DNA of 64,000 bases from Candidatus Omnitrophota bacterium (lineage in GTDB: Bacteria > Omnitrophota > Gorgyraeia > Duberdicusellales > 4484-171): positions 131,774-195,773 of the forward strand of contig JAFGQU010000004.1 of the NCBI GenBank assembly GCA_016935525.1. The letters are read 5' to 3'. How positions within the stretch are numbered: position 1 is the stretch's first letter; each line of letters begins with the position of its first letter. The notes beneath the pieces are model-generated. The model did no database searches and had not been told where the DNA came from. It saw only the letters and a program-made list of their open reading frames with translations. Both the position numbers and the translations under genes were made by a program. Shown here piece after piece: positions 31,922 through 52,693 of the stretch.

Positions 31922-31939
31922 AATTTTAGTTTTATAATG

Positions 31940-32022
31940 GTCACACGACACATAGTCACATAGACACACGTAAAAAAATATGGATCTTATACGTGTGACG
32001 TGTGACGTGTGACTTTGTGACC
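31940..32022. repeat. REP-like GTGAC-heptamer palindromic element
   Basis: ggtcacacgacacatagtcacatagacacacg - taaaaaaatatggatcttat - acgtgtgacgtgtgacgtgtgactttgtgacc. Lies between the aldolase stop and the ALDH start. Confidence 0.8.
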
Positions 32023-32023
32023 T

Positions 32024-33046
32024 TCATTCTACCGGCGCTTCTTCCCATAATTTGAAGGTGCGTACCATCACCGGGTACCACCGGCTCATCTTCGCAAAAT
32101 CACCTTTGGTCTTCACCTTCCCCTGAGTCGATGCGACAAAAGGATCGATCTCTTTATTGAACACTTTTTTAAGGACTTCCGGTTTACCGATGATCACAAA
32201 TTCCGCATCATCACAGTCGTCATCACGGACTATCCGGCCCTGTTCATAACAGAACCGCATGACTTCATCCGTATCCTGATTTTTTACCGCAAGCGTACAG
32301 GTCAATCCGTATTGTTTCCCTAAAGCTTGAGCTTGTTCGTCATTATTGACCAGTTCAGTAAGCCGCCCGCGGTGCGCCGCCGATAACATCTTATAGGTCT
32401 TCGACACACGCTGAGCATGTAATATCGGCTGTGTTTCCTGAACATGCAATCCGGCGGAAACCGCCTGGCTTTTAGTAATCAGATTTACTTTTGTCTGTTC
32501 TTCAATCAATTCCAAAAGGCTCACCGCTTCTTTGAATTCTTTCCCTATCGCCACGACCCCATGATACCGCAGTACCGTAATATTATTAGCCTCAAGCGCC
32601 GCCACGACCGGTTGTATATCGGTGACCGTAGGCGTATTCTGGGGTATGACCCGGACATTACCCAGATAGAATTTCGCTTCAAACGAAAATATATCCAGCG
32701 TATCGAAATAATGAAAAAACGCGGTCGTACACGGAGAATGGCTGTGGACTACGGTCTGGATATCGGGAAGCGACCGATACACCGCGAGGTGCAGATCTTT
32801 TTCACTGGACGGGGCCGATTCATTTCCCGCGATGAGATTGCCGTCGATATCGACACTCACGATATCGTCATAAGTCAAATGCCCCAAATAACAATCATGC
32901 CGGGTGATAAGGATGTGATTGGGGCCGATACGGCACGACAGGTTGCCGCTGCGGGCAGTGATCAACCCTTTTTGATAAAGGATATTCGCCCAATAAATGA
33001 TCTCTTTTTTTTCTCGTTCACACTTCACTGCCAGGCACCTCCTCAC
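32024..33046 (-). CDS. Class II aldolase/adducin-family protein fused to a C-terminal SCP2-like domain
   Basis: N-terminal half with GNLSCRIGPNHILIT...HSHSP, as in MtnB/FucA-type aldolases. C-terminus ...QGKVKTKGDFAKMSRW resembles the SCP2 sterol-carrier signature. Confidence 0.65.
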   Translation of the reverse strand: MRRCLAVKCEREKKEIIYWANILYQKGLITARSGNLSCRIGPNHILITRHDCYLGHLTYDDIVSVDIDGNLIAGNESAPSSEKDLHLAVYRSLPDIQTVVHSHSPCTTAFFHYFDTLDIFSFEAKFYLGNVRVIPQNTPTVTDIQPVVAALEANNITVLRYHGVVAIGKEFKEAVSLLELIEEQTKVNLITKSQAVSAGLHVQETQPILHAQRVSKTYKMLSAAHRGRLTELVNNDEQAQALGKQYGLTCTLAVKNQDTDEVMRFCYEQGRIVRDDDCDDAEFVIIGKPEVLKKVFNKEIDPFVASTQGKVKTKGDFAKMSRWYPVMVRTFKLWEEAPVE

Positions 33047-33500
33047 CGATTGTTTCGCGTTCAGAATGTATTATATACTTCTTTGACCGTTCATCTACAA
33101 CAAAATTATGTCCCGCCAGGGTCGAAGCATCCCGGTCAAAACCGGAAAGATCGTATTCCCCTTCAGCAAGGATACATACCGGCACCCGGTGGATTTCACT
33201 TAACAGCGCCGCGTATGAAGCCCCGGTCATCCCTTCCGGCCGCAAGGAACCTTTACGGCAGAAAAGAAACGTCTTTTTTATCTTTTTCGTATAGAAAAGA
33301 ATACCGATCATATTGTCGGTACAATATACCGCCGGGATGTAGTGTGAGGAAAGAAGCGGTAGATTATGGTGGATCCCGACACAATACGGCCGCTGTTCCG
33401 GGACGATCACCAGAGCGTCTTCATCCTTTAAGCAGGCAATATGTTCGTGTGAGATGATTCCCCATACCAACACCGCATTTTTAATCGTTTCAAGTTTCAT
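33018..33500 (-). CDS. Hypothetical protein
   Basis: 160-aa ORF in operon position, overlapping its neighbours. No recognised motif. Confidence 0.3.
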   Translation of the reverse strand: MKLETIKNAVLVWGIISHEHIACLKDEDALVIVPEQRPYCVGIHHNLPLLSSHYIPAVYCTDNMIGILFYTKKIKKTFLFCRKGSLRPEGMTGASYAALLSEIHRVPVCILAEGEYDLSGFDRDASTLAGHNFVVDERSKKYIIHSERETIGEEVPGSEV

Positions 33501-34402
33501 TGTTTCATCGGTAATTCTAAAGATTTTGTGATCAATCGGCCGGGCACCACATCAAATGCTGGATATACCGCGTCCTGGCCGTTACTCCACTTCTCAATAT
33601 AAGAAAACACCTCGCGCGGCGGCCGTTCTTCGATCTCGATACTGTTCACATCGATATCGCGGGGATATTGAGTAAGCGCGTAAAACGGGATATTGAAATG
33701 ACGGGCAAGGCACCCGAGGGCATACGTCCCGGTTTTATTGATAATATCTCCGGTCTTCGTCGCCCGGTCGGCACCGACCACGACACAATTCACTTTTTGT
33801 TTTTTCATAAGTAAAGCCGCCTGATTATCGCAGAGGAGATAACAAGACAGGTTGTTTTTCCGTAACTCCCAAAAGGTGATCCGGCTGCCCTGCAGGTAAG
33901 GCCGGGTTTCACATACGTAATAAGAAACGTGTTTACCCGAAGATTCCAATGCTTCAGCAAGATATAACAATTCTCCGTTGACGTTACATATCGTAAGGAT
34001 ATGCGCCTCTTGCGGCAGGAGTCCGGCAAGAGTAGTTGCCCTTAATTTACGGGCCCGGTCGAAATTCGTGATGAATCCGGAAACGATCTTATCCAGCGGC
34101 GCGCCGGATGCGCGGTAACGTTTTATTAATCCGTTTAAAAACAAAAAATCGAATGTAGGACGGGTCTTTTGGAATTTCCCGGCGATCTCATCGCTCGCAC
34201 ACGAATTTTCAAAAAGCACGCAACAATAGAAAAATAAAAGCACCTGGCCTAATGAACGGGTCTTCATCTGGCCTAACACACCCAAGGCGTCATCAAGAGT
34301 TTTTACCGTGATATACTCACACGTATAAGGGATCTTAGTCTCATCCAGGACTTGTATAGTATTTTCCGTTAAGCTGACCGGAAAAAGCAAAGGGCTATCC
34401 AT
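33497..34402 (-). CDS. eIF-2B-family sugar-phosphate isomerase (MtnA / ribose-1,5-bisphosphate isomerase-like)
   Basis: GADRATKTGDIINKTGTYALG and a C-terminal PAFDVVPGRLIT, characteristic of MtnA-type isomerases. Confidence 0.7.
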   Translation of the reverse strand: MDSPLLFPVSLTENTIQVLDETKIPYTCEYITVKTLDDALGVLGQMKTRSLGQVLLFFYCCVLFENSCASDEIAGKFQKTRPTFDFLFLNGLIKRYRASGAPLDKIVSGFITNFDRARKLRATTLAGLLPQEAHILTICNVNGELLYLAEALESSGKHVSYYVCETRPYLQGSRITFWELRKNNLSCYLLCDNQAALLMKKQKVNCVVVGADRATKTGDIINKTGTYALGCLARHFNIPFYALTQYPRDIDVNSIEIEERPPREVFSYIEKWSNGQDAVYPAFDVVPGRLITKSLELPMKQ

Positions 34403-35210
34403 ATATATTCTCCCTATAGTTCTTCAATATCTGCCGGGACAGTTCGCCCGGGCGCCCGGAAGATATGGGTCTTCCTTCCCACTCGACCAGCGGCATTACA
34501 TATAGTAACGAACTGGTCAAGAACGCTTCGTCACAGCGTGCGATATCATCCTGACCTATTTTTTTCTCTTTAACCGGCACCCCCAACGTCTTGATTATCG
34601 TACATATTTCTTGAGCGGTAATGCCGGTAAAGACACTTGCGTCTTCCCCGGGAATATATACCGTACCGTCTCTGATAAGAAACAGATTACTGCGCGCTCC
34701 TCCGACAATATCTCCCCGGACGCTGACGACCAACGCTTCGTCTTTTTTATGTTGCTGGGCATATAACCAGCTTAACCGGTTATATCCGTAACTTAACGAT
34801 TTTACTGCCCGTAACCCGCTGTGCTCATAACGGCGGTAAGGCGATATCACGGCTTTAAATCCCGTATCATACACTTCCGGAGGATAATAGCCGAAGGTAT
34901 CGGTATACATGATCACTCCGGTACTTTTACGTTTTTTATATACGGTAATCCGGATATAGGCATCTCCCCGAGCCAGACCGTTTTCATCCAGAAGGCGGGT
35001 TATTTCTTTTTCCCATTCAAGAACGACCGCATCCAAGCCCAGTACTCTGAGGGCTTCTTCCAATCTTGCCAGGTGCGATTTAAGATGCGGTATTTTTCCG
35101 TCCCAAGCCCGCATCGTCTCAAATGCGCCCCAACCGAAAAGATATCCCGGCTCAAGGATCTCGTTGATATCCTCTTTCTCGTAAAGCTGGTTATTCAAAA
35201 ATACTTTCAT
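34395..35210 (-). CDS. Class IV PLP aminotransferase-fold protein (BCAT or aminodeoxychorismate-lyase-like)
   Basis: EAFLTSS motif near the C-terminus and the overall class IV fold pattern. 271 aa, PabC-like in size. Confidence 0.65.
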   Translation of the reverse strand: MKVFLNNQLYEKEDINEILEPGYLFGWGAFETMRAWDGKIPHLKSHLARLEEALRVLGLDAVVLEWEKEITRLLDENGLARGDAYIRITVYKKRKSTGVIMYTDTFGYYPPEVYDTGFKAVISPYRRYEHSGLRAVKSLSYGYNRLSWLYAQQHKKDEALVVSVRGDIVGGARSNLFLIRDGTVYIPGEDASVFTGITAQEICTIIKTLGVPVKEKKIGQDDIARCDEAFLTSSLLYVMPLVEWEGRPISSGRPGELSRQILKNYRENIYG

Positions 35211-36115
35211 CGCGTATCAGAAGGAAACAGGGAAAGGAAATTCCTTCCGGTAATATCTCCCTTTACCTGAGGCCCTAATTCTTCAAGCATAGAAAGGTCC
35301 TTATCCAGATCGCCGCACACCGGATAATCTGAACCCCATAATATTTTATCGGCACCGAAAAGGTCGATAGCCATGAGGATGTTCGAAAAGGAATTCCCGG
35401 AAGTATCGACATAGACGTTACGTAATATCTGCGAAGGAAAGCTCCCTAGGTCTTTTACGATACCACGGCCGCGTAACATCGTATATATCCGGTCAAACCG
35501 GTCTTTTAAGAAAGGCACGACCCCCCCCAGACTTGAAAAGATGAATTTTGCCTCATATTTCTGTAACACCCCTTCGGTCATCAAGAGGCCCAAAAACATC
35601 GAACTGTCAAAGCTATATTCCAGAACCGGCATCAATAACGGGTCATTGACCCGGTCAAACCCGATAGGATTAATCGTCTGAGGATGCACGAAAATAGGAA
35701 GTCCTATGTCGGCAGCAGCGTGGAAAAGGAGTTCGAGTTCTTTCACCATAAACTTCCCCTGGTAACTCGAGGAAAGGTTAATTGCGCCAAACCCGCGTTC
35801 TTTTAACCGGCGGGCTTGTTCGGCGAGCGTCGAAGGATCGTCCACATTCACCAATCCGGTCCCGACAATACGCTGATTGCAAGAAACAATTTCTGAGACC
35901 GCATCGTTGTACAAGCGACAAAGGTAATCGTTATCTTTTATGTTCGCGGCGGCATCGGTGGAAGGATACACCAGTAACGCTTTTGCGATACGGTAACGTT
36001 CCAGAAAGGCGAAGAGCTTTTCTTTATCAGTCCACGCTCCTTTATAGAAAGAGGTATGGCGTGATAACTCTTCGGGAATGAAATGGATATGGGCATCACA
36101 CAACATAGGCATCAA
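35207..36115 (-). CDS. Amidohydrolase_2-family metal-dependent hydrolase/decarboxylase
   Basis: N-terminal CDAHIH metal-binding motif of TIM-barrel amidohydrolases. The ATG at 36112 is a better start than the TTG at 36115. Confidence 0.6.
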   Translation of the reverse strand: MMPMLCDAHIHFIPEELSRHTSFYKGAWTDKEKLFAFLERYRIAKALLVYPSTDAAANIKDNDYLCRLYNDAVSEIVSCNQRIVGTGLVNVDDPSTLAEQARRLKERGFGAINLSSSYQGKFMVKELELLFHAAADIGLPIFVHPQTINPIGFDRVNDPLLMPVLEYSFDSSMFLGLLMTEGVLQKYEAKFIFSSLGGVVPFLKDRFDRIYTMLRGRGIVKDLGSFPSQILRNVYVDTSGNSFSNILMAIDLFGADKILWGSDYPVCGDLDKDLSMLEELGPQVKGDITGRNFLSLFPSDTR

Positions 36116-36117
36116 TA

Positions 36118-36191
36118 GTCACACGACACACGTCACACGTCACACGTGAAACCGAATACGTGTGACTATGTGACCTTGTGACTTTGTGACC
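36118..36191. repeat. REP-like GTGAC-heptamer palindromic element
   Basis: gtcacacgacacacgtcacacgtcacacgtg-aaaccgaata-cgtgtgactatgtgaccttgtgactttgtgac. It fills the gap between the B12-rSAM stop and the amidohydrolase start. Confidence 0.8.
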
Positions 36192-36192
36192 C

Positions 36193-37653
36193 TTATATAT
36201 GTTTTTCTCCCTTCACCGCGCCTTCTTCCCATTGGGAGACCCCGCGCATCACGTCCTGAAAACACAGTTTGGCTAATTGATCGAACTGGCTGTACATGAT
36301 CCGTTGGACCCGTCCAGGTTTTGAGAAAAATTCGCGCATACACCATGCACCCAATCTTCCCAGATCTTCTATGGAAAGATGATCGGTCGGCATCACCGGG
36401 TGCAAAAAATCCCATTTAAGAAAATCGATCTTTTTCGGATCGATGATCCCTTTCGCCATCCCCCGTTTCCATATCGGTGAGTTCGGCGCCGGAGTCACAT
36501 ATCCGATCCATAAGATATCGGGATCGACTTCGTCGGTAAACTCAAACCGCTGTTTCACGATCGCTTCGGTATCATAATCAAACCCCATCATGATATCGGC
36601 GACTACCGCGACATTGTTCCGGCGTAATATCTCGATGGTCTTTCTGATCTGTTCGATGGTAATCCCTTTGGCGATCTTCTTAAGTTCTTCCGGTGTGGTC
36701 ACCTCTATTCCAAATACTCCGATAAACAGACCGGTCTCTTTCATCAGCGGCAGGATCTCTTCACAGTTTACCCAATCGATCGCCCGGCCTAAAGAGACCC
36801 ATTTGATCGGATTGCCTTTTTCTTTTTTCAGGTCACAGAACTTTTTAACTCTTTCGGGATTCACGTTAAAATTATCGTCCTGGATGACCACGACTTTCGT
36901 GCCGAACTTATGATGAAGTAATTCGAGTTCTTCGATCACCCGTTCGGGAGATTTTGCCCGCCACTTCAAAAAATCTTCCGGGTGCCGCGGATCATACTGG
37001 TCCCATTCGTAACAGAACGTACAGGCCGAAGGGCACCCGCGGGAGGTCACCATTTCCACAAACGGTTTCCAGTGAGTATGGCCCACATACTTATCCATCG
37101 GGAAAAGGTCGTACGCCGGGAGCGGAAGGCTGTCCAGGCATACATTAAGCGGCCGGTGAGGGCCCATGACCGGTTTACCGTCGACGCGGGAAGAGACCCC
37201 GGCAAGGTCTTTGACCGGTTTTTTCTCGTCGATCGTCGTGATCAGATCATGGAACGCTTCTTCTTCAGCCATCACCACATAATCGATCGCCGGGTTCTGT
37301 TCCAGAGTAAATATCGGCATAGAAGAATACCATAATCCTCCGACAATGATCTTGGTATCAGGCAATGCCTGTTTTATCCGGGAAGCCGCTTCATTGAAAT
37401 ACCAGAGGATCGCGAACCCTCCGTAAGAATGGAGCATATCACCCAGCATTACCACATCCGGATTTTTCTCTTTTACCATGTGGACCATCTGGTCCATAGG
37501 TATTTCCAGGACGCGGCAATCGAGCACTTCCAGATCGTCATACCCTTTTTCCCGGACATAGGCACCCCACTGAGCATACAGCTGGTTAGGCGCGCGATGG
37601 ATACCATGAGTCGCCCATGCTCCCAACTTCGGCATCACAAACAATATTTTCAT
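36193..37653 (-). CDS. B12-binding-domain radical SAM enzyme (class B)
   Basis: N-terminal Rossmann-like B12-binding region, then SRGCPSACTFC (CX3CX2C). 486 aa. Confidence 0.75.
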   Translation of the reverse strand: MKILFVMPKLGAWATHGIHRAPNQLYAQWGAYVREKGYDDLEVLDCRVLEIPMDQMVHMVKEKNPDVVMLGDMLHSYGGFAILWYFNEAASRIKQALPDTKIIVGGLWYSSMPIFTLEQNPAIDYVVMAEEEAFHDLITTIDEKKPVKDLAGVSSRVDGKPVMGPHRPLNVCLDSLPLPAYDLFPMDKYVGHTHWKPFVEMVTSRGCPSACTFCYEWDQYDPRHPEDFLKWRAKSPERVIEELELLHHKFGTKVVVIQDDNFNVNPERVKKFCDLKKEKGNPIKWVSLGRAIDWVNCEEILPLMKETGLFIGVFGIEVTTPEELKKIAKGITIEQIRKTIEILRRNNVAVVADIMMGFDYDTEAIVKQRFEFTDEVDPDILWIGYVTPAPNSPIWKRGMAKGIIDPKKIDFLKWDFLHPVMPTDHLSIEDLGRLGAWCMREFFSKPGRVQRIMYSQFDQLAKLCFQDVMRGVSQWEEGAVKGEKHI

Positions 37654-37676
37654 ATCTTTCTCCTTTCTTTTTATAA

Positions 37677-37764
37677 GTCACACATCACATTATATAGAGG
37701 CGGAACCACGCGGATATTTATCTTTCCCTTACGTGTGACCTTGTGACTATGTGACTTTGTGACC
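37677..37764. repeat. REP-like GTGAC-heptamer palindromic element
   Basis: gtcacacatcacat - AT-rich core with tataga - acgtgtgaccttgtgactatgtgactttgtgacc. Lies between the SDR stop and the B12-rSAM start. Confidence 0.75.
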
Positions 37765-37765
37765 T

Positions 37766-38539
37766 TCATTTATTTGGATGTTCCTGTGTAAACGGAATCA
37801 CCGGTTTGGTCCAGGGAGTCTGTTGATTGATTACGGCAAGTTCCAGAGGATTCACGTTTGCTTCCTGGGTAAGCGCGAACATGACCGTATCGGCAACCGA
37901 TTCCACCGAACACAATCTATCGTTATCTGACGTCACTTCATTGAGTTTTCCGGTAAGCGGGGTCTTGGTCACTCCCGGAAAGATGGAAGTCACCTTAATC
38001 CCGAAATCACGCATTTCCCAGAAAAGGCCTTTGGCAAACGCGCGTAACGCTACTTTCAGCGAGGTATATACAATGAAATTGCGCGGCGGCGGATCGACCA
38101 TCACCGAACCGCTGGTGATATTCACGATATGGCCGGATTCCTGTTCTTTCATCTGGTTGACTACCAGCCGGGAAAGCATCACGTAACTATAATAATTGGT
38201 ATACATCACTTTTTCAATATCCTCAATGGGTTGTTGCCAGAACGGATACTGACTGGAAACACCCGCACCATTGATCAATACGTCTATCTTTTTAAACCGA
38301 GTGAGCGCAGTCTCAACCAGATTTTCAAGATCCTCGCGCTTGGTCACATCGCAACGGACACAGATCACTTTGTCTTTATTGGGTAAAGAGGCTTTCAACT
38401 CATCCAATACTTCAATCCTGCGGGCGGCAAGGACTAACGTCGCGTTACTTCGGGCTAATTTCTCAACGATGGCCTTTCCGATCCCGCCGGATGCACCGGT
38501 CACAATACATACCTTATTTTCTAACTGCACATGGTTCAT
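37766..38539 (-). CDS. Short-chain dehydrogenase/reductase, candidate ketoreductase
   Basis: TGASGGIGKAI Rossmann motif. YxxxK region present. 257 aa. Confidence 0.8.
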   Translation of the reverse strand: MNHVQLENKVCIVTGASGGIGKAIVEKLARSNATLVLAARRIEVLDELKASLPNKDKVICVRCDVTKREDLENLVETALTRFKKIDVLINGAGVSSQYPFWQQPIEDIEKVMYTNYYSYVMLSRLVVNQMKEQESGHIVNITSGSVMVDPPPRNFIVYTSLKVALRAFAKGLFWEMRDFGIKVTSIFPGVTKTPLTGKLNEVTSDNDRLCSVESVADTVMFALTQEANVNPLELAVINQQTPWTKPVIPFTQEHPNK

Positions 38540-38565
38540 ATGTCTTCCTCCGATCTTTTCTGTCG

Positions 38566-39690
38566 TTACGAATGAGCCAAGGATTTAGGCAATAAAAATC
38601 CCATTACTAAAAGCGCTGCCCCGACAATAAGAAAATGGGTTTGAAACCCTAAGTGAGAGATAGAGATCCCTCCGGCGGCGGCACCGATCCCGCCGGCAAA
38701 AAAACGTAACGCGCTGTTAAGGCTTGAGGAATCTCTTAATATCTTATCGGGAAAATGGGTAAGATGCGATGATAACCCCACGTGCGTCAACGCCCAGCCG
38801 CCACCCCAAAAAAGCATTACCATAAAAAGCGCCGAATAGAGCCGCAAAAAGAACAGGATACCGCAAAAAAGAGCCATCACCATAAACCCTATCCGGGCAA
38901 GATGGATATTGCCGATACGGGCGGCAAGTATCCCGCCTAAGAATTCGGCGCCGGTCGCACTTACCGTAGATACAGTAAGGATAGAACTGATCAACACCTG
39001 GGTCAAACCGTACTGGATCTTGAAATACACGCCTAACCATTGCTGAACACTGTGATAAAAAAAACTGACCAGGATGATAACGATAAAAAAGTTAAGCGCC
39101 CCCCTATCGCGAAACGTATCTACATAACTGACTTTAAAACTCTCCCGGCGAAAATCGAATTCATCAAGGGCTATCGGTATAATCAAAAGCATCAGAAAAC
39201 TCATCCCGGCCGGAATAAGATAAAGCCCGCGCCACGGGATAAACCCGCTCAAGAATACGCTCACACAGGTCGACACATACGAAATCGCGAATAAAGTGCC
39301 GATATATTTGGATTTCTCGTTTTGGGGGACGCTTTTACCTATGGTAATCAGGATCAACGGCACAAAACTACAACCAAAACATCCCATAAGGAACCGGAAT
39401 ATATACGCCTGCGGCAAGGTGCTTGAGAAGGCAAATCCGAACGTGGAAAGGCTATATCCGGCCATGGTAAAAAGCAATATTTTTTTCACGGCCATGATCC
39501 GGGTAAGCGGAGACCAAAGGAGAGCGCACACGCCGTAAGGAAGCATATAAAGCCAGATAAGCCTTGCCGCCTGAACCGGAGGCACTGCGAAATAGAGAGC
39601 AAACTGGGGGACTAACGCCGCCATTGCCGCCACTCCGAAAGAAAGCGTAAAGAAACTGACACAGAAAAGCGAAAAACTATTTTTAGACAT
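38566..39690 (-). CDS. MFS transporter
   Basis: 12 predicted TM segments with MFS-like loop motifs. Confidence 0.75.
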   Translation of the reverse strand: MSKNSFSLFCVSFFTLSFGVAAMAALVPQFALYFAVPPVQAARLIWLYMLPYGVCALLWSPLTRIMAVKKILLFTMAGYSLSTFGFAFSSTLPQAYIFRFLMGCFGCSFVPLILITIGKSVPQNEKSKYIGTLFAISYVSTCVSVFLSGFIPWRGLYLIPAGMSFLMLLIIPIALDEFDFRRESFKVSYVDTFRDRGALNFFIVIILVSFFYHSVQQWLGVYFKIQYGLTQVLISSILTVSTVSATGAEFLGGILAARIGNIHLARIGFMVMALFCGILFFLRLYSALFMVMLFWGGGWALTHVGLSSHLTHFPDKILRDSSSLNSALRFFAGGIGAAAGGISISHLGFQTHFLIVGAALLVMGFLLPKSLAHS

Positions 39691-40120
39691 GCACTTCTTG
39701 TTCGATCAACTCTTTAAATCGTTTCAGATTTTCCTGAGAATGGTTGTTAATTATCTCTTCGACCTGCGCGTCGTTGAATTTCGCTTTTTTATCCATAGAA
39801 AAATCCTGGATCCATTTCATCTCGATCCCGCCGGAGGTTTCGCGGTAAAGCCAGATGATCTTCATATATTCGAAAGGGAACATCGGTTCAAGACGGCAGG
39901 CATAGGCATATTTATCTTCTTTACCCAACAGGCGATAAGAAATCCAGGAATTCCCGTTCTGATGCGTGAGCTGGAACGTGATCTTATTGCCTTCCTGACG
40001 GATCACTTCCGAGGCGGTATATTCGCTAAAAAACTCTTTCCAACGGGAGATGTCATTACTCATATCAAATACTTTTTCGTAAGGAGCGTTAATTACGATT
40101 GAATTTACGGTATGCGCCAT
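39683..40120 (-). CDS. SRPBCC (Bet v1/START-like) polyketide cyclase/aromatase-like protein
   Basis: 145 aa with an SRPBCC-like pattern (NAPYEKVFDMSNDISRWKEFF...). Start codon ATG at 40120. Confidence 0.5.
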   Translation of the reverse strand: MAHTVNSIVINAPYEKVFDMSNDISRWKEFFSEYTASEVIRQEGNKITFQLTHQNGNSWISYRLLGKEDKYAYACRLEPMFPFEYMKIIWLYRETSGGIEMKWIQDFSMDKKAKFNDAQVEEIINNHSQENLKRFKELIEQEVHV

Positions 40121-40137
40121 TTTTCCTCCTTCTTTTT

Positions 40138-40237
40138 CGTAACGCGTAACGCGGCACGCGACACGCGCATAAAGAAAAATATTAAAATCGATTTCCTCTC
40201 CCCAAGACGCGTTACGCAGGACGCATGACGCGTTACG
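40138..40237. repeat. Variant palindromic element built from ACGCGTTAC/GTAACGCG heptamers
   Basis: cgtaacgcgtaacgcggcacgcgacacgcgc - ataaagaaaaatattaaaatcgatttcc - gacgcgttacgcaggacgcatgacgcgttacg. Same architecture as the GTGAC family, with a different unit. Confidence 0.75.
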
Positions 40238-41039
40238 GGAGCATCGCGACCACTCTCGCCCAGGCCGCGCCGGTTTGCCGGATACGTACCGGCAGACAAC
40301 TGACGGTAAACCCGTGATCAGGCAATGCCCCTAAATTAGCCAGCCGTTCGATATGGATAAACTCCCGAGTGCGCCCGTAAAAATGAGCCGGCCATAAATA
40401 GCGGGCTTCTCTTTTTTCTAAAAAGTCTTTCATCATGTATTTATAAGGACGGTCTATCCCCATGGTATCCACACCGAATATTTTTATCTGGTGATCAAGG
40501 AGATAATCGATCGCCGAATTGTCCAGCCCCGGATAATCGGAAAAATAACGGGGAGTGCCGTATAACGTATCCGAACCGGTATAGATAAGTACGATATCCA
40601 ACGGTTTTAAAGTATACCCTATCTTTTCAAGCGCTCGCCGGATATCTTCGGCGCCGATCGTCTCAAAAGGCTGCTTATAACAAAGGTCGAGGCGTACTCC
40701 GTTCTGCACGCACCATTCTAAGGGTATTTCTTCGGCGGTTTTCGACGGACGGCCTTCGGATCGGCTTCCGTAATGGAACGAATAATCAAGATGAGTCCCT
40801 ACGTGCACCGGGGAATGGACTATTTCCAAAGAAAGAAACTCTTCGTCGGGAAGATCGTCTTTAGTGATCATCCGCCGGCCGAACAGATAGGCGAGCTTCC
40901 CCTTGAGGGTCCTGGACATCAATACTTTATTTAGTTTTTTTATACCGTCACGGTGAGAAATCCGTTCGATATCGACATCATGGACTTCAAAAGCTTTTTC
41001 ATCAATGGGAAGGCTCAGGTCTATTATTCTCATGGTCAC
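40233..41039 (-). CDS. Putative-cyclase-family protein (kynurenine formamidase fold)
   Basis: HSPVHVGTHLDYSFHY metal-binding motif of the cyclase family. The probable true start is the ATG at 41033. The 3' end overlaps the ACGCGTTAC repeat. Confidence 0.65.
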   Translation of the reverse strand: MTMRIIDLSLPIDEKAFEVHDVDIERISHRDGIKKLNKVLMSRTLKGKLAYLFGRRMITKDDLPDEEFLSLEIVHSPVHVGTHLDYSFHYGSRSEGRPSKTAEEIPLEWCVQNGVRLDLCYKQPFETIGAEDIRRALEKIGYTLKPLDIVLIYTGSDTLYGTPRYFSDYPGLDNSAIDYLLDHQIKIFGVDTMGIDRPYKYMMKDFLEKREARYLWPAHFYGRTREFIHIERLANLGALPDHGFTVSCLPVRIRQTGAAWARVVAMLP

Positions 41040-41070
41040 AAAGTCACATAGTCACACGTCACATGTGACG
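41034..41070. repeat. Short GTGAC-family palindromic element
   Basis: ggtcacaaagtcacatagtcacacgtcacatgtgacg. Lies between the ACP stop and the cyclase start. Confidence 0.75.
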
Positions 41071-41081
41071 ATTTTAAATAA

Positions 41082-41318
41082 TTACGACTGTTTTTTATTT
41101 TCAATAATCCCCACGATCTCCAGCGGAGTCGAGCTTTTTCCTATCTCGTCCGTTTCTATCTTTACCGCGAACTGTTTACCCAGCGCGACCGTCAATTCGA
41201 CCATTTCAGTTGAATCTACTCCGATAGAATCATAGAGCGTTTTATCTTCAATAAGTTCATCCTCACCCACATCCAATGTCTTGGCAATAGCCGAGATCAC
41301 TTCTTCTTTAAGTCCCAT
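41082..41318 (-). CDS. Acyl carrier protein
   Basis: IGVDSTEMVEL phosphopantetheine-attachment motif. Strong RBS AAAGGAGGG before the MGLKEE start. Confidence 0.75.
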   Translation of the reverse strand: MGLKEEVISAIAKTLDVGEDELIEDKTLYDSIGVDSTEMVELTVALGKQFAVKIETDEIGKSSTPLEIVGIIENKKQS

Positions 41319-41425
41319 GGTCCCTCCTTTTTGAAACACAGATAGTCACGGATTAAGATCCACAAGATGGTCACAGACGCAAAAATCTGCGATCATCAGT
41401 TCAAAATCAGCGATTATCTGCGCAA

Positions 41426-42661
41426 TCATGCCTTTTCAATAGCCAACACCACATTAATCCCGCCCCGGCCGCGCGCCAAAATAAGCGCTTTTTTTATTTT
41501 TCTCGACCGGGAAACGTTGGGAGTATAATCGAGATCACAGTAAGGGTCAGCCATCTCATAATTGATCGTAGGCAATATAGTCTCGTGCTCCATAGAAAGC
41601 AATGTCGAGATCAGATCAAGTGAAGTTTGAGCACCCAGGAGGTTTCCGTACATACTCTTGGGAGCGCTCAATGCGATACCACCGATCTTTTTACCGAACA
41701 CATTCTTTAGGGCCATTGTCTCATTACTGTCTCCGATTGTGGTCGCATCACCGTCGAGACAGATATAATCGATATCCTCCTTTTTCCATCCGGCATCATT
41801 GATACATTCTTCGATGGCATACTGGAAACTTTCCGGATCCAACCGGTACCGGGCATAATGGTACCCGTCACAACTTACTCCTATCCCGCGCAGGTATCCG
41901 TAGACCGGCGCGCTCCGATTACGGGCGTGGGCTTCTTTTTCGAACGTCACGATTCCGGCCCCTTCGCCCAACACAAACCCGTCACGGTTTAAATCATAGG
42001 GACGATACGCTTTTTGAGGATTAAGGTTATTTTTAGAAAGCTGACCGCAACTTGACGCCGAAAGGAGCGCATAAGGCGTAATCGGAGCTTCCATCCCGCC
42101 GGCAAGCACATAATCGTTTTTCCCCTCGGCGATCACTTTTGCTCCGTACCAAAGGGCAAGGGCCGATGAAGCTTTATCGGCGACGATGGTCTTACTATAC
42201 CCTTTAAACCCGTAATAAATAGTCACCTGCCCCTGAGGAGCCGCCGGAAACCAGGCACTGGCCATATAGGGCGAAATACCTTCACGGCCTTCCAAATACA
42301 TATCCCGCAGTTCAGTTTCGGCAAAAAGCCATCCTCCCAGAGCGTTTCCCATGAATACTCCGACTCTATTCTTATCCACCTGGGTATGATCTATCCGGGC
42401 ATCCTGTAACGCTTGTTCAGACGCTACCAGCGCCATATGAGAAAACACATCGATCTTTTTGATCAGCCGGCTCGATAAATGCGTGTAATAATCGAGTTCA
42501 TGTACCTGGCCGGCAATACGGGAAGGATAGAGTTTTGCGTCGAAGCGGGTGATCTCATCGACAAACGAACGGGCCTGTTTTAAATTCGCCCAAAACGTTT
42601 CTTTCTTCATCCCGCAGGGAGACACTACTCCTAATCCGGTAATAGCAACTGATTCTTTCAT
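41426..42661 (-). CDS. Ketosynthase-beta / chain-length-factor-like KS paralog, catalytically inactive
   Basis: Thiolase-fold KS in which the catalytic Cys position reads ADKASS (Lys). The two catalytic His positions read DGDATT and GNLLGAQ (Asp, Asn). Confidence 0.8.
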   Translation of the reverse strand: MKESVAITGLGVVSPCGMKKETFWANLKQARSFVDEITRFDAKLYPSRIAGQVHELDYYTHLSSRLIKKIDVFSHMALVASEQALQDARIDHTQVDKNRVGVFMGNALGGWLFAETELRDMYLEGREGISPYMASAWFPAAPQGQVTIYYGFKGYSKTIVADKASSALALWYGAKVIAEGKNDYVLAGGMEAPITPYALLSASSCGQLSKNNLNPQKAYRPYDLNRDGFVLGEGAGIVTFEKEAHARNRSAPVYGYLRGIGVSCDGYHYARYRLDPESFQYAIEECINDAGWKKEDIDYICLDGDATTIGDSNETMALKNVFGKKIGGIALSAPKSMYGNLLGAQTSLDLISTLLSMEHETILPTINYEMADPYCDLDYTPNVSRSRKIKKALILARGRGGINVVLAIEKA

Positions 42662-43932
42662 AAAGAAACTCCGTTTTCTTTGGTGTTAAAGCGTTTGAAA
42701 ATGATTGATGAGTGGATTCCTGAGAAACCACTACTTGTCTTTAAAATATAGTTCGGCATCAATTCCCGTTTGACATTGGGAATATAATCCAGGTCGCATT
42801 GCGGATCCGGTTCTTCCTGGTTGATCGTAGGAGGCAAATACCCGTTTTGAAAGATCATTCCGCACAGCACACTCTCCACCGCATTAGCCGCAGCTAAAGG
42901 ATGGCCGATCATCGATTTTATCGAACTGATCGGGACTTTATAGGCGTACTCTCCGAACACTCCTTTATACGCGTTGGTCTCAAACACATCGTTCTGGCGG
43001 GTTGAAGAACCGTGAGCGTTGATATAATCTATATCCTCGTTCTTTATTCCGGCATCGGCTATGGCTTCCCGGATACACCGTTCCATCGCTTCGCCGCTTT
43101 CGGGAAGATCAGTCATATGGTACGCATTACAGCTGGTACCGTATCCGACGACTTCTCCGTAAATAGGCACCCCTCTTTTTTTTGCGTGTTCTAACTCTTC
43201 TAAAATAAGGACGCCGGCGCCTTCGGAAATCACAAATCCGTTCCGTTTGTTATCAAACGGACGACTCGCTTTATGTGGTTCATCGTTATTTTTCGCAAGT
43301 ACGTTCACGACATCAAATGCTCCAAAAGTAATCGGGCAGACCGGGGCTTCACTTGCTCCGGCAATGACCAGGTCCTGCCGGCCGTCACGGATAAGTTCAT
43401 AGCTAAATCCTAACGAATCGGTCCCGGCGGTACATCCGGTAGAAACCGTACAATTGAACCCCTGAGTGCCGTACAGAGCGCTGATCTCACTGGAGGGGGT
43501 ATTGAACATCGCCGCATCGTAAAGATACGGCCTCCCTTTTCGGGGATCGATCGGATTTTTACCCCATCCGGTTACCCGTAAAAATTCTTCTTCCATAAAC
43601 CGGGTCCCACAGATGGCATTGGCAAGGATTACCCCGCATTTTTTCCGATCAAGTCCATTAAAATCTATTTTTCCGTCGGTCACCGCCTGGACCGCCGCAG
43701 CCAGGGCGAACTGGACGTACCTATCCATACGGAAATGGTCTTTAATCCCGAATTCTTCCGGATCAAAATCAAGATATTGCGAAGCGATCTTCGAGACAAA
43801 AAGACTTACGTCAAAATTTTCTACCAGTTCGACACAGGGTTTCCCGGAGATCAGATTATCGTAAAACGTATTTTTATCCGCACCGGCACCGCAGACAACG
43901 CCTAATCCCGTTATCACTACTCTTCTTTTCAT
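42658..43932 (-). CDS. Beta-ketoacyl synthase (KS-alpha)
   Basis: Catalytic Cys VSTGCTAGTDS, HGSST and GHPLAAA His motifs. Translationally coupled to the CLF gene. Confidence 0.85.
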   Translation of the reverse strand: MKRRVVITGLGVVCGAGADKNTFYDNLISGKPCVELVENFDVSLFVSKIASQYLDFDPEEFGIKDHFRMDRYVQFALAAAVQAVTDGKIDFNGLDRKKCGVILANAICGTRFMEEEFLRVTGWGKNPIDPRKGRPYLYDAAMFNTPSSEISALYGTQGFNCTVSTGCTAGTDSLGFSYELIRDGRQDLVIAGASEAPVCPITFGAFDVVNVLAKNNDEPHKASRPFDNKRNGFVISEGAGVLILEELEHAKKRGVPIYGEVVGYGTSCNAYHMTDLPESGEAMERCIREAIADAGIKNEDIDYINAHGSSTRQNDVFETNAYKGVFGEYAYKVPISSIKSMIGHPLAAANAVESVLCGMIFQNGYLPPTINQEEPDPQCDLDYIPNVKRELMPNYILKTSSGFSGIHSSIIFKRFNTKENGVSL

Positions 43933-44531
43933 TCTATTCTCCTTACCTTAAATTTCATATGCCCTCCGTCAGGACAGGCCGTACCGGTCTTACAGTGTTC
44001 GTTTTCTTCAAAAGTGAACTTCGCGCCGAAATTCAACGCAAACAGGACCGGAAACAGGACGCTGTAAGCCGCGCCACAAAACTCCGGAGGTGTTTTTAAC
44101 CCTTTTACCTGCCATTTGTCGCCCGGCTTGTAACCGAACGTACAATGTCCGCACGTCTCCTGCACCTCGATTTCCAGCTGTTTAGGATTGGGGCCTTTCG
44201 GTTTTTCAGCCCTGGGTTCGACAATTACATTACCGGCATCATCTAATATTTCGACTTTAAACGTAAGTTTGGCGTTATCGGGACAGGTCACATTGATCGA
44301 TCTGGTATTCTCCATGAACGGGAATTTCGCGCCGAAGGTAAGCGCGTAGAGACAGGGAAACGCCGATTGCGACAATCCCAGGCAGAAATCTTCGGGCGGA
44401 TGCGTAAAATCTTTCAAGATGAGCTCATCCCCTATCTTATAATTATGATAACAATACCCTCTTATCTCAAGAACAGTCAACTTCAGCTTGGGAAACGTTA
44501 CTTTTTGAGAGACTTCTTTTTTTTCATCCAT
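43929..44531 (-). CDS. Hypothetical protein made of two tandem roughly 95-aa Cys-rich domains
   Basis: Internal duplication. Both halves share C-x-H...K-x-GD...PE-x-FC...P-x-L-x-AL-x-FGAKF-x-F-x-EN...CPD...FKV. Confidence 0.5.
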   Translation of the reverse strand: MDEKKEVSQKVTFPKLKLTVLEIRGYCYHNYKIGDELILKDFTHPPEDFCLGLSQSAFPCLYALTFGAKFPFMENTRSINVTCPDNAKLTFKVEILDDAGNVIVEPRAEKPKGPNPKQLEIEVQETCGHCTFGYKPGDKWQVKGLKTPPEFCGAAYSVLFPVLFALNFGAKFTFEENEHCKTGTACPDGGHMKFKVRRIE

Positions 44532-45537
44532 ACGATTTCTCCTCTACCTTCGTCAATTCTTTCATGAATTCCTCAACAGATAAAAATGTATTTGTTTTTT
44601 CGACCCGGTGGACGAGTTCTACCATCTTTTTATTCAACGGCGCCTGGCTCATCGATTTTTCAGCCAAACCGACTATCTCTCCGTTAATATAATCTATTTC
44701 TGAAGGTTTTCCCCTCCGAATACTCTGTAATATAGATCCATAAAGCGGTTCTTCGCTTAAAGAAGCCATCACTTTCGAAAAAAGCACTGCCGCCTCTTTA
44801 GGAGGCATAGTGACTAACCCCTGGATACGTTCTTTAGGATATCCCGGAAGGCTGACCAGTTCGATGCCGGCATCTTCTATGACCGAATATGCCTCCCGGT
44901 TTACATAAATCGCGCATTCCGCAATTTCAAGATTACTGAACGCATCCTGCAGGGAAACTCCCAACACCGCCGGTATACAATTATTAAGGTTCACGAATAT
45001 TTTAAGATACTTCGCGCCCCGGATGTTTTTCTCATTCACCACGCGGGTAACCGGGCTAAGAATGCGTTCTATCTGGTCGAACTGCCAGCGGGGATTTTTA
45101 AAAAGGGACCCCACCACAAGGCTTCCTTCGAAATTGTGTACTACGCGGTCCGGCGGATAAAATGTCGCGCCGAACATCACGATCCCGGTGATGATCCGGG
45201 AAGCATGAGAATAATTCTCTACAATATAATCGGCGGCAATCCCGTTTTGAGTCGTGAGGATGAACGAATCTTTAAGATACGGCCCATTTTCTTTAAGAAC
45301 CGCCTCAAGATCGGCGATCTTGGTGGCAATTACCGCTACATCGACCGGCTCAGTCAACACGGTCTGCACATTGACTTTGACATTATGGGTCCCGCGTACG
45401 CCTTCGATCTTCAACCCTTCACGGGTCAACGGTTCTTTTTGATACTCCTTGACGATACCTATTACTTCACTGCGGCCGGAAAGATATCCTAAAAAAGCCC
45501 CGCCGATCGCTCCACATCCAAGTATCGCTACTCTCAT
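44524..45537 (-). CDS. 2-dehydropantoate 2-reductase-family (ApbA/PanE) oxidoreductase
   Basis: N-terminal MRVAILGCGAIGGAF Rossmann motif. KPR-like C-terminal domain. Confidence 0.7.
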   Translation of the reverse strand: MRVAILGCGAIGGAFLGYLSGRSEVIGIVKEYQKEPLTREGLKIEGVRGTHNVKVNVQTVLTEPVDVAVIATKIADLEAVLKENGPYLKDSFILTTQNGIAADYIVENYSHASRIITGIVMFGATFYPPDRVVHNFEGSLVVGSLFKNPRWQFDQIERILSPVTRVVNEKNIRGAKYLKIFVNLNNCIPAVLGVSLQDAFSNLEIAECAIYVNREAYSVIEDAGIELVSLPGYPKERIQGLVTMPPKEAAVLFSKVMASLSEEPLYGSILQSIRRGKPSEIDYINGEIVGLAEKSMSQAPLNKKMVELVHRVEKTNTFLSVEEFMKELTKVEEKSYG

Positions 45538-45986
45538 TGCCCCGCCTCACAATATTTTCTGAATGCCCCAAGCACTCGCTCAATATTCATACAATGCAGA
45601 CGTTTATATACCATGTTCCAAAGCATACGGGAACATCTCCCTTTCAATTCGCAACAAAAACGGTAGACGACTTCTATCTGGGCCCGGTCCTGGTGGACAA
45701 AAAATTCTTCATACCCGCCTTTAAACATCCCGTCAAGAAACGTACGGCGTAGATATTTTTTCTCTCGGTCGACGACTTCATTACGTTTATGCCATGCGGG
45801 CCCTAACGGGAACCGCGCCTTTTGCCAATACAGCGTGCCTTCTTTGATGTCACCGGAAAGGTTAATAAACCTCATCATCATTTTTTCAGGCCACCACTCT
45901 GACTGTGGACCCAGAAGCAATTCTTCAAAGACATCGATCCCGTTTCTTTGCAGTGAAAAAACGATATTTTGTTTAATCGTCTCCAT
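45534..45986 (-). CDS. Hypothetical protein
   Basis: 150-aa ORF, translationally coupled within the cluster. No confident motif. Confidence 0.35.
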   Translation of the reverse strand: METIKQNIVFSLQRNGIDVFEELLLGPQSEWWPEKMMMRFINLSGDIKEGTLYWQKARFPLGPAWHKRNEVVDREKKYLRRTFLDGMFKGGYEEFFVHQDRAQIEVVYRFCCELKGRCSRMLWNMVYKRLHCMNIERVLGAFRKYCEAGQ

Positions 45987-46245
45987 CTTCTATATATTGT
46001 TTGTAGGGAACCTCCAGCTGCTGAAACAGACGGCGCATCATGTCACGAAATGCCGGGGGCACCTCACAGAAAAAGGCTTTAATAAGATCTTCTTCCTCTA
46101 CGGTGCGGGAATCCCGCGCGCCGGCGATCGCTTCGGCAGATTCTTTCACCAGGTGTTCGGCGATCGAACGGTGAAATTGAGGAAGATTCCCGATCACTTT
46201 ATCAAAGATATCCTGGGCATTTTTAGCCCATGCAACTGATGCCAT
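45973..46245 (-). CDS. Hypothetical small protein
   Basis: 90-aa ORF in operon position. Confidence 0.3.
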   Translation of the reverse strand: MASVAWAKNAQDIFDKVIGNLPQFHRSIAEHLVKESAEAIAGARDSRTVEEEDLIKAFFCEVPPAFRDMMRRLFQQLEVPYKQYIEDGDD

Positions 46246-46246
46246 G

Positions 46247-46984
46247 TCATACTCCTTTCTCGATCAGACTGAACGCCCCGTTAATCATCTTCATCTCGGC
46301 TTCAAAATAACGATAATCGGTAAACCCCATCTGTCCGGTAATAAGGTTATCGGAAACCGCAAGGACCACCGCGACTTTCTTTTTATAGATATTCGCCAAG
46401 GTCACGAAAGGGCTGGTAACCATATCAACGGCGATAGCGCCTTTATCGATATAAGAATTTACTATATCTTTCGTTTCGCGAAATATCGCATCGGTTGTCC
46501 ATACCCCGCCGCGATGGGTACCGCTGATCTCCTTAAATGTATCGACCAACGACGAAGTCAACTGTCCATCTACCAGAGGCATATATTCATCGTCCACGTA
46601 ATACCGGGTAACCCCGTCACCCCTGATCACTTTATCGGCAACAATAAAATCACCGATCTCGATATCATCGCGCAGGGCTCCGCAGGAACCGATACGGATA
46701 AGCGTCTCTACTCCGGCGGCACAGACCAATTCGGTAATAAACGCCGAATCGGGAGCGTAAAACCCTCCGTTGCCGACGGTGACCCGTTTCCCTTTATACG
46801 TACCGGTCCAGAAAGTGTAGCCCAGAAAAGTAAAATTTTTTACGGGATCTTCAAGTTTATCGACACACATTTTAGCCCGTTGCGGTTGTCCGCTGATGAT
46901 CGCAGTGTGAGCAAAATCGCCGGGACGAAACTGCAAAGAGTCTAACAGGCCTTTCGGTTCCATATGGATCTCTCTGGTCATCAT
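46247..46984 (-). CDS. PNP/UDP-family nucleoside phosphorylase or nucleosidase
   Basis: PNP_UDP_1 fold pattern (GNGGFYAPDSAF, IRIGSCGAL, a VDMVTSP-like region). Confidence 0.7.
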   Translation of the reverse strand: MMTREIHMEPKGLLDSLQFRPGDFAHTAIISGQPQRAKMCVDKLEDPVKNFTFLGYTFWTGTYKGKRVTVGNGGFYAPDSAFITELVCAAGVETLIRIGSCGALRDDIEIGDFIVADKVIRGDGVTRYYVDDEYMPLVDGQLTSSLVDTFKEISGTHRGGVWTTDAIFRETKDIVNSYIDKGAIAVDMVTSPFVTLANIYKKKVAVVLAVSDNLITGQMGFTDYRYFEAEMKMINGAFSLIEKGV

Positions 46985-47002
46985 AATGATACTCCTTTAA
47001 TT

Positions 47003-47107
47003 AGTCACAAGGTCACATAGTCACAGGTCACACGCAATAGTTACTTTGAGGTATTTTCTTGACGTGTGTCGTGTGACGTGTGTCGTGTGACGTGTGTCGT
47101 GTGACGT
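47003..47107. repeat. REP-like GTGAC element with a 14-nt GTGTGACGTGTGTC x3 right arm
   Basis: tagtcacaaggtcacatagtcacaggtcacacgc - aatagttactttgaggtattttctt - gacgtgtgtcgtgtgacgtgtgtcgtgtgacgtgtgtcgtgtgacgttg. The right arm lies inside the ligase 3' coding end. Confidence 0.8.
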
Positions 47108-48603: not shown

Positions 48604-48625
48604 TTATTATTACCTAGCCTCATTA

Positions 48626-48655
48626 TAGTAAAATTTTATTAGTTAAATTTTACTA
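48626..48655. promoter_or_regulatory. AT-rich imperfect palindrome, a candidate PadR operator or promoter element for the cluster
   Basis: TAGTAAAATTTTA-ttag-TTAAATTTTACTA in the 96-nt gap between the padR stop and the first cluster gene. Confidence 0.35.
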
Positions 48656-52676: not shown

Positions 52677-52693
52677 CTGCGATCATCCGCGTA

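Follow-up and report, generated by a model that had tools for sequence, protein, structure and literature searches.

In a 64,000-nt stretch of contig JAFGQU010000004.1 from a Candidatus Omnitrophota bacterium (hereafter the window), two inverted arrays of tandem heptamers occupy positions 40138-40237, between a cyclase-family gene and an SRPBCC gene. [quoted passage not shown] The element itself is real and is not a product of chance.

A repeat search identified two 30-nt arms, 77% complementary and 40 nt apart, and both this search and Tandem Repeats Finder (TRF) agreed with the coordinates and the inverted tandem-heptamer layout proposed in an earlier note on this DNA. The left arm, which is the 3' arm on the transcribed minus strand, lies at 40138-40167 and has the forward letters CGTAACG CGTAACG CGGCACG CGACACG CG (TRF arrays 40138-40153 and 40149-40167, period 7); as RNA it reads CGCGUGU CGCGUGC CGCGUUA CGCGUUA CG. 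The right arm, or 5' arm, at 40208-40237 on the same strand has the forward letters CGCGTTACGCAGGACGCATGACGCGTTACG (TRF array 40214-40231, period 7) and as RNA reads CGUAACG CGUCAUG CGUCCUG CGUAACG CG, four heptamers of the form YGCGUNN. Each arm is thus built of four imperfect heptamers. The units had been given as CGTAACG/GCGTTAC, which is exact for the outer units; this covers only four of about eight (CGTAACG/CGTTACG), the inner ones being CGGCACG, CGACACG, CGTCATG and CGTCCTG, and the part that remains constant is ACGCG/CGCGT. ACGCGT equals its own reverse complement, and the arms consequently also match as direct repeats (26 nt, 77% identity). Between them lies the AT-rich core that had been described, a 40-nt minus-strand spacer at 40168-40207 (forward letters cataaagaaaaatattaaaatcgatttcctctccccaaga) with 30% G+C (12/40). 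The sequence CGTAACGCG occurs five times in the window against 0.5 expected, a count reached in no shuffle, and four of the five occurrences are inside the element, as are eight of the nine window matches to ACGCGNNACGCG when up to one mismatch is allowed. In its head-to-tail 7-nt units beyond chance, the element resembles a long heptanucleotide simple sequence repeat (SSR).

Folding of the sense RNA, 128 nt around the element, predicted one long imperfect hairpin with a minimum free energy of -48.6 kcal/mol (z -3.8; 0 of 200 shuffles as good), in which 40208-40237 pairs with 40138-40167. The predicted helix consists of segments of 10, 5, 1, 4, 6 and 9 bp with small internal loops between them, and the last segment is formed by the spacer halves, the purine-rich 5' half GGGGAGAGG of the sense strand pairing mostly through G-U with the U-rich 3' half and so lengthening the stem. 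At the base of the predicted hairpin the CUCC of the last cyclase codons pairs with the GGAG of the downstream Shine-Dalgarno (SD) sequence. The antisense strand folded as RNA gave only two local hairpins (-37.2 kcal/mol). A comparison of free energies across loci, as had been suggested, gave z-scores of -3 to -5 for most of the elements built of GTGAC units in the window and of -2 to -8 for the elements of relatives.

Simpler identities were also considered. A scan returned no terminator-like site (0) at the element, where the 3' arm is followed by AAAAAGAAGGAGG, so that the definition of an intrinsic terminator does not apply, and a scan of the element returned no promoter-like site. No Rfam family matched the element at its gathering threshold, and the sole weak match in a permissive search, a meaningless one, was to a model of a microRNA precursor, scoring 20.9 bits where the threshold is 86. 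On these scans a terminator, a promoter and a known RNA family were all rejected. A small open reading frame (ORF) was rejected as the sole ATG in the loop lies about 25 nt from the SD-like GGAGAGGA, and a CRISPR as there are only two, inverted, arms. Since neither a terminator nor a promoter is present, the element is probably transcribed within a polycistronic mRNA.

The minus strand carries nearly all of the window's genes, and the cyclase and SRPBCC genes are part of a long operon on that strand, like those of type II polyketide synthases, of a Candidatus Omnitrophica metagenome-assembled genome (MAG). The TAA stop codon of the cyclase-family gene (ORF 40233-41033, minus strand; Pfam Cyclase PF04199) is at 40233-40235, within the first heptamer of the element on the transcribed strand, which is the last CGTAACG unit on the forward strand. 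The right arm does therefore overlap the 3' end of the gene, as had been claimed, by 5 nt. The cyclase C-terminus, ...AAWARVVAMLP followed by the stop, aligns with those of relatives, so the element displaces no cyclase protein sequence. On the other side, the SRPBCC gene (ORF 39683-40120, minus strand; Pfam Polyketide_cyc2/SRPBCC) has an SD sequence, AAGGAGG at 40125-40131, which begins 6 nt past the 3' arm, and its ATG is at 40118-40120. The transcribed strand across the region reads ...CUC CCG UAA CGCGUCAUGCGUCCUGCGUAACGCGUC-(spacer)-CGCGUGUCGCGUGCCGCGUUACGCGUUACG AAAAAG AAGGAGG AAAA AUG.

The same gap was compared in 80 metagenomic relatives. In the closest of them, L130 (cyclase 82% identical in amino acids and 78.6% in nucleotides), an orthologous heptamer arm, likewise of four units, is present at the same site, in a contig that ends 30 nt past the stop. 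After an identical ...CTCCCGTAA, L130 reads CGCGTAT TGCGTAG TACGTAT TGCGAG where the window reads CGCGTCA TGCGTCC TGCGTAA CGCGTC; unit positions 1-5 are identical at 17 of 20 sites and positions 6-7 at one of seven (Fisher p 0.0017). By this comparison the element is older than the split from the L130 lineage, with its cores constrained and the positions between them not. In L121 (cyclase 83% in amino acids, 75.4% in nucleotides) the gap is 26 nt and has no element, the junction being TAA-tctgttat-aaaaaaggagg..ATG as against TAA-(element)-aaaaagaaggaggaaaaATG in the window, and in most of the relatives the gap is 10-30 nt with an SD sequence. As the site is empty in L121 and most other relatives, the element is dispensable for the operon.

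The element was placed in a wider class by a TRF survey of 81 non-redundant Omnitrophota loci (564 kb), in which an array was counted if it was 24 nt or longer and had 2.8 copies or more. There were 56 arrays at period 7, 15 at period 8 and 14 at period 9, and four or fewer at any other period. Of the period-7 arrays, 41 of 56 lay outside an ORF mask that left 9.5% of the sequence uncovered (p 5e-30), and the length of period-7 arrays has its mode at 30-31 nt (22/81 arrays). An inverted partner was found nearby for 47 of 106 arrays of at least 21 nt, using an ungapped test that misses pairs of period 7 with period 8; paired arrays are often adjacent and inverted, with arms of equal length. A single genome can hold several such types, as a 20-kb stretch of L124 has at least six unit cores in its gaps (nnnTCAG, CACGTnn, GTTACGnn, CACGAAT, ATCACAA and ATCCGCG), and this bears out the earlier suggestion that a single DNA-binding specificity is unlikely. 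Furthermore, a period-9 GTTACG element is homologous over its full length (arms, order of variant units and loop) at L149 3565-3690 and 7425-7575 and at L124 1115-1210. These are unrelated gaps in two genomes, and every copy begins 4-5 nt past a TAA. Some families have therefore been copied as whole elements, which independent local slippage cannot yield. The ends of this family carry TA/TAA, which as a target duplication is suggestive only. The element of the window has the features that define the class, namely two inverted arms of about 30 nt, each of about four tandem 7-9-mers with a constant core of 4-6 nt and two to three free positions, separated by a short A/T-rich spacer, in a gap between co-directional genes at or just after the stop codon.

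Sister elements are found in the window itself, where seven loci in gaps between co-directional genes carry GTCAC/GTGAC units in the same layout as at 40138-40237. The identity of layout had been noted; it comprises a pair of arms, each a run of tandem 7-8-mers about 30 nt long, with a spacer separating them, all placed between a stop codon and the start of the next gene. The upstream stop codon is at the hairpin base or in the loop in the window elements. Neither GTGAC nor GTCAC occurs in the CGTAACG element, in agreement with the earlier note, though a GTNAC core is common to both unit types (GTAAC/GTTAC versus GTCAC/GTGAC). The inner unit GACACGC of the CGTAACG element is one base from the GACACAC of the GTGAC elements, and GACACGC and GGCACGC are one to two bases from the GACACAC/GTCACAC of their period-7 arms. 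In addition, the loop resembles that of one GTGAC element, E2 (24081-24180), both having GGGGA-GRGGAAAT-GAT followed by a T-rich stretch; the alignment scores 24 against 12.9 +/- 2.7 in shuffles (p about 0.01, uncorrected for 15 comparisons). One Logan contig ends inside GTGAC arrays at both of its ends, window positions 37734 and 47032, and a second contig at 1116, which fits arrays that are multi-copy or polymorphic; the first has no break at the CGTAACG element. The earlier note had regarded the CGTAACG units as a second repeat family. This was not borne out, as a search of the window and of about 530 kb of Omnitrophota DNA around homologous clusters found no other such array, and the Logan assembly runs straight through the element. 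With its ortholog in L130, its E2-like loop and its GTNAC core, it is better described as one old, diverged element. Of the two grounds on which the earlier note would have given up its claim, a lack of further copies and a lack of conservation in relatives, the first was found and the second was not, the arrangement being kept in one relative.

If the element is such a hairpin, its fold would loop an extra 95 nt out of the mRNA and leave the stop codon and the next ribosome-binding site a few nucleotides apart, which may keep translation of the two genes coupled and spare the mRNA a long untranslated stretch that lacks structure. The junction between the acyl carrier protein (ACP) and cyclase genes is informative here. 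In most relatives the stop and ATG are adjacent there and no SD sequence is present; lineages with a hairpin at this junction also have no SD sequence, with 0-14 nt left between the 3' arm and the ATG. These distances, and those at the cyclase-SRPBCC junction, were read by eye, automated start-codon distances being unreliable. Because looping out keeps stop and start close, it may be that only hairpin-forming inserts persist in very short gaps, a view that comes mainly from the ACP-cyclase junctions. Any effect on expression, whether through mRNA stability or through partial masking of the SD sequence by the CUCC/GGAG pairing, would probably be modulatory. The heptamer periodicity could reflect the origin of the arms, with replication slippage favouring 7-nt units, and not a sequence-specific reader. 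These findings are compatible with either role offered in the earlier note, that of a structural hairpin and that of a mobile miniature element having divergent subfamilies.

It is possible, though on balance doubtful, that a more general principle applies, and that Omnitrophota carry a dispersed class of intercistronic hairpins comprising many sequence families which share only their architecture, lie right after stop codons in either orientation, spread by a route guided by structure and not by sequence and act as a loop-out device that preserves coupling. If so, they might be spread by, for example, an HUH or RAYT-like enzyme (RAYT, REP-associated tyrosine transposase) that recognises single-strand hairpins, or by template switching, and would owe their persistence in very compact operons to a fold that holds the stop codon next to the start codon.

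Several results weigh against the reading of the element as a tolerated member of a dispersed hairpin class. The absence of a second ACGCG/CGTAACG period-7 array in the window and in the 530 kb examined means that dispersal of the element is deduced only from its sister families. Of the L130 ortholog, only the 5' arm is within the contig. No transposase or RAYT gene was found among the window ORFs scanned against Pfam, and no target-site duplication was recognised at the element ends when these were compared with the empty L121 site. The loops of the GTGAC copies are mostly unconserved, unlike those of typical MITE copies or of REPINs (hairpins formed by two inverted REP sequences), and slippage leaves the fixed arm length of about 30 nt unexplained. 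A test for selection at the RNA level was null, with 163 G-U against 135 A-C opposite positions (p 0.12), and z-scores are similar on both strands across the class, with no clear asymmetry towards the sense RNA. Covariation on the nnnTCAG elements was uninformative since repeated units let the aligner shift register. Given the null test and the two orientations, a selected RNA function explains the element no better than does an origin at the DNA level that is simply tolerated in the RNA.

The alternatives to a dispersed, tolerated hairpin draw on the same evidence. An adaptive cis-regulatory RNA, selected for intercistronic control of the ratio of cyclase to SRPBCC expression, would account for the greater stability of the sense than of the antisense fold (-48.6 versus -37.2 kcal/mol; likewise for six of eight window elements), for the core positions kept in the L130 ortholog, and for a stop codon at the hairpin base or in the loop of all window elements. 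Such an RNA might be a processing site for RNase III or RNase E, a barrier to 3' exonucleases, or a mask over the SD sequence until ribosomes finish the cyclase gene, and the CUCC/GGAG pairing at the hairpin base accords with the last of these. That masking however amounts to only 4 bp and is absent in the other elements, both orientations occur, the excess of G-U is not significant class-wide, and the empty site in L121 and most relatives, with gaps of 10-30 nt, shows the element to be dispensable; we therefore regard selected regulation as unlikely. Slippage of a 7-nt seed beside the stop codon followed by inverted duplication, producing a neutral local SSR with no transposition, is improbable to a similar degree. 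In its favour, the unit type is single-copy in all sequence examined, and ACGCGTN heptamer arrays, including exact CGTAACGCGTAACGCG, occur in many phyla (a contig-wide pattern scan for ACRCGNN x4 found at least 119 loci). Heptanucleotides are moreover the most abundant class of long SSRs in prokaryotes, with polymerase slippage the proposed origin, according to the summaries of Mrazek 2007 given in PMC4679880 and PMC4692102. The arrays in other phyla are mostly single and not inverted pairs. Local slippage is also hard to reconcile with an array length that is not free but peaks at 30-31 nt with two arms usually equal, with variation concentrated in two to three positions per unit and not random, and with a sister family that keeps the order of its variant units and its loop at unrelated sites in different genomes.

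An array of protein-binding sites on the DNA, operator or iteron-like, for a regulator recognising GTNAC or ACGCGT, is suggested by the presence of GTNAC in both unit types of the window, by the perfect palindrome ACGCGT and by the arms being direct as well as inverted repeats of each other. We think it very unlikely, as the element lies inside an operon, between a stop codon and an SD sequence, and not at a promoter; neighbouring sites spaced 7-8 bp apart would face different sides of the helix; the relatives have at least ten unrelated cores in the same layout, several of them in one genome; and no gene next to the element encodes a regulator, while the PadR gene at 48700-49242 has its own conserved palindromic site at 48604-48699. 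Finally, next to no credence can be given to low-complexity sequence arising by chance or to an assembly artefact. Assemblers do break at the neighbouring GTGAC arrays, but window 37734-47032, the CGTAACG element included, recurs at 100% identity in a Logan assembly made independently from run SRR13394437, the motif is about ten-fold enriched over shuffles, the fold has a z-score of -3.8, and the ortholog comes from a different metagenome.

Among known repeats the element is to be filed with REP/MITE-like dispersed hairpins that have heptamer-SSR arms, and it is a member of no named family. REP sequences and REPINs, including REP dimers tagged GTAG/CGTC, are similarly extragenic, mostly between unidirectional genes and near the 3' end of the upstream ORF; they can supply a stop codon or run into the end of an ORF, and two inverted units of about 30 nt and a spacer form a long hairpin in mRNA or single-stranded DNA (PMC3733652, PMC3116915). 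As in the Omnitrophota class, there are several families per genome, and presence or absence differs between relatives (PMC3733652, PMC3116915). The element resembles them in its position by an upstream 3' end and in its inverted units folding as one hairpin. A REP monomer is however a 20-40-bp palindrome of conserved sequence, with an 8-9-bp stem, a 4-5-nt loop and a GTAG/CGTC tag (PMC3733652), whereas each arm of the element is four tandem heptamers with free positions, self-pairs only through its ACGCGT copies and has no layout of tag, stem, loop and tail. REP sequences and REPINs are also present as many conserved copies per genome and have a cognate RAYT (a Y1 transposase), in contrast to a unit type that is single-copy in the window and the 530 kb and a window in which no such gene was found among the Pfam-scanned ORFs.

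Bacterial MITEs (Correia/NEMIS, ERIC/IRU, RUP, BOX) share with the element a length of about 100 nt, terminal inverted repeats (here the 30-nt arms) and an intergenic position, and share with the class co-transcription with neighbouring genes, folding into a long hairpin, occurrence in either orientation and, for the sister families, dispersal as whole elements. Presence at multiple unrelated sites, a MITE trait, is seen for the GTGAC family in the window and the GTTACG family in relatives but not for the CGTAACG unit type. The element differs from MITEs in that no target-site duplication was recognised, no parent insertion sequence or transposase is known for it and its terminal inverted repeats are themselves tandem repeats; copies of the GTGAC family differ from one another in loop sequence and arm period. 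Mycobacterial interspersed repetitive units (MIRUs) and intercistronic stem-loops are repeats that occupy the gaps of polycistronic operons and preserve expression of the downstream gene, but MIRUs are direct tandem units of 40-100 bp, with small ORFs overlapping the flanking stop and start codons, and not heptamer hairpins.

Intergenic heptamer arrays near start or stop codons are known from Beggiatoaceae, cyanobacteria, Bacteroidetes and Xanthomonas, with occasional inverted pairs; units include TAACTGA in Beggiatoaceae and cyanobacteria, GGGAATC in Xanthomonas, and GGGGAYT and short tandemly repeated repetitive (STRR) sequences in Nostoc and Calothrix (PMC4679880, PMC4692102). Like the element, these SSRs consist of 7-nt tandem units, are imperfect at some positions, are strongly intergenic and are often near start or stop codons. 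They are mainly direct, with one dominant unit per genome and a copy number of 2-43, whereas the Omnitrophota arrays form inverted pairs of about four units with many unit sequences. The STRR heptamers of heterocystous cyanobacteria are CCCCAGT, TTGGTCA and CAACAGT; with YGCGTNN / CGTAACG units and an Omnitrophota source, the element is not an STRR.

Little is at stake at this single locus, where a conserved biosynthetic operon carries an insert that it can do without. In Omnitrophota operons, however, the short gaps between genes prove to be a habitat for several kinds of hairpin element. SSRs, REP sequences and MITEs, as usually described, do not combine a heptamer period, a preferred arm of about 30 nt and a free unit sequence, and this combination hints at a shared generating or selecting mechanism. 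Gene calling is affected, since C-terminal tails encoded by arrays and false N-terminal extensions were seen, as is assembly, with contigs breaking at arrays. If looping out does occur, the elements would provide a natural test of how folded intercistronic RNA is tolerated by a translationally coupled operon, and they could be used as fine-scale markers for typing strains and lineages in an uncultured phylum. A literature search, which was incomplete and is weak evidence of novelty, yielded no account of elements of this kind from Omnitrophota.

The GTGAC elements of the window, all on the minus strand, are asymmetric, pairing an arm of period 7 with an arm of period 8. Relative to transcription they are found both ways round, E2 and E8 in one orientation and E4 and E5 in the opposite one. 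E1 (1079-1145) has GTGACTTT x4 and a degenerate partner, and Logan contig L125 ends in it. E2 is composed of GTCACAnn / CGTGTGA units, with its 5' arm inside the 3' end of an RlmN-like ORF and the stop in the loop, and E3 (31940-32023) of GTNAC units. E4 (36116-36192), with GTCACAC x4 / TGTGACnn x4, lies between the B12-radical-SAM and amidohydrolase genes and folds at -38.5 kcal/mol (z -5.2); E5 (37677-37766) has TGTGACnn x4 and a short partner arm, and one end of a Logan contig is there. E7 (41033-41064) is a half element of GTCACAnn x3 and GTCACATGTGAC that abuts the ATG of the cyclase gene. E8 (47002-47107), where that contig has its other end, has GTCACAnn x4 / TGACGTG x7, and the AMP-ligase ORF takes its C-terminal tail from the 5' arm of E8. 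The repeat arrays at 47060-47107 and 24148-24180 thus run into the 3' ends of ORFs, with the stop codon in the element loop, and heptamer repeats encode about 22 residues at the end of the AMP-ligase ORF (47041-48603) as well as the tail of the ORF for the RlmN-like radical-SAM protein (24130-25200). Conversely, an array in L121 is annotated as a 21-residue N-terminal extension of the cyclase.

Other repeats occupy the same two junctions in relatives. In the cyclase-SRPBCC gap there are heptamer hairpins of TGTTTAA/CATTAAA (L148) and AGTTCGG/CTACGAA (L163), TAAGCTR x10 (L209), ACTGTNN arrays (L176), a double-hairpin element of about 140 nt (L126, L128, L131, L133 and L154) and, in other relatives, several other hairpin repeats. 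The double-hairpin element consists of ATCCCGCCTC...GGCGGGAT and then CAATTCGACTA...AGTCTCATTGAGGAGGT, and ends in the SD sequence of the downstream gene, which it seemingly supplies; copies are at L126 10802-10943 and 13325-13485 and at L128 9589-9740, 10799-10946 and 13371-13547, and also in L131, L133 and L154. At the ACP-cyclase junction the units are GGGTnnn/nnnACCC in L121 and L130, nnnTCAG/CTGAnnn in L124, L133, L149 and L166, CACGTnn in L131 and L144, and GTCACA in the window, L186 and L195.

At 100% identity the cyclase matches a protein named as coming from a Candidatus Omnitrophica MAG, and it has hundreds of homologues at 70-83% identity, those with a source name being from Omnitrophica/Omnitrophota, in which the gene cluster is syntenic. 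A Pfam scan of the neighbouring genes identified an AMP-ligase, an MTAP-like phosphorylase, an ApbA-type reductase, a ketosynthase/chain-length factor (KS/CLF) pair and an ACP, and further a major facilitator superfamily (MFS) transporter, a short-chain dehydrogenase/reductase (SDR), a B12-radical-SAM enzyme, an amidohydrolase, a class IV aminotransferase, MtnA- and MtnB-like enzymes and an aldehyde dehydrogenase. Across many Omnitrophota the order of window 30400-48600 (approximately), together with 24100-30400, is kept: AMP-ligase, MTAP-like, ApbA, KS/CLF, ACP and cyclase, followed by SRPBCC, MFS, SDR, B12-radical-SAM, amidohydrolase, aminotransferase IV, MtnA-like, MtnB-like and aldehyde dehydrogenase. 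Downstream of this cluster in the window are MMPL, LolA-like, DUF1302 and thioesterase genes. Upstream of the AMP-ligase gene and adjoining the PadR gene, the site at 48604-48699 is a pair of TAGTAAAATTTTACTA-like palindromes, which are kept in relatives (L124 2174-2411, L126 1892-1942, L128 2505-2711) and are probably the promoter/operator of the whole cluster.

Arrays of ACGCGTN, ACACGCA, ACACGGG and ACGCGAG were also observed in Vulcanimicrobiota, Synergistia, Porphyromonadaceae, Chloroflexota, Aminicenantes, Verrucomicrobiota, Planctomycetota and Streptomyces, and several MAGs have many copies of heptamer arrays, for example Vulcanimicrobiota ER2 and Synergistia SRP239243_co1_332. Within the window, CTGCGATCATCTG and its variants recur between genes at 41395-41425, 52670-52693 and 63265-63327, as well as at L128 5299-5431, sometimes twice in tandem. 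The 142-nt gap at 10005-10146 is another kind of structured spacer, rich in GGACGA/TCGTCC, with a fold of -65 kcal/mol (z -4.4) and a G+C-rich hairpin at its end. A direct array of AACGGGCA x3.9 with period 8 and no inverted partner is present at 54469-54499, in the divergent region between a Mg-chelatase-like gene and a UvrD-like helicase gene.

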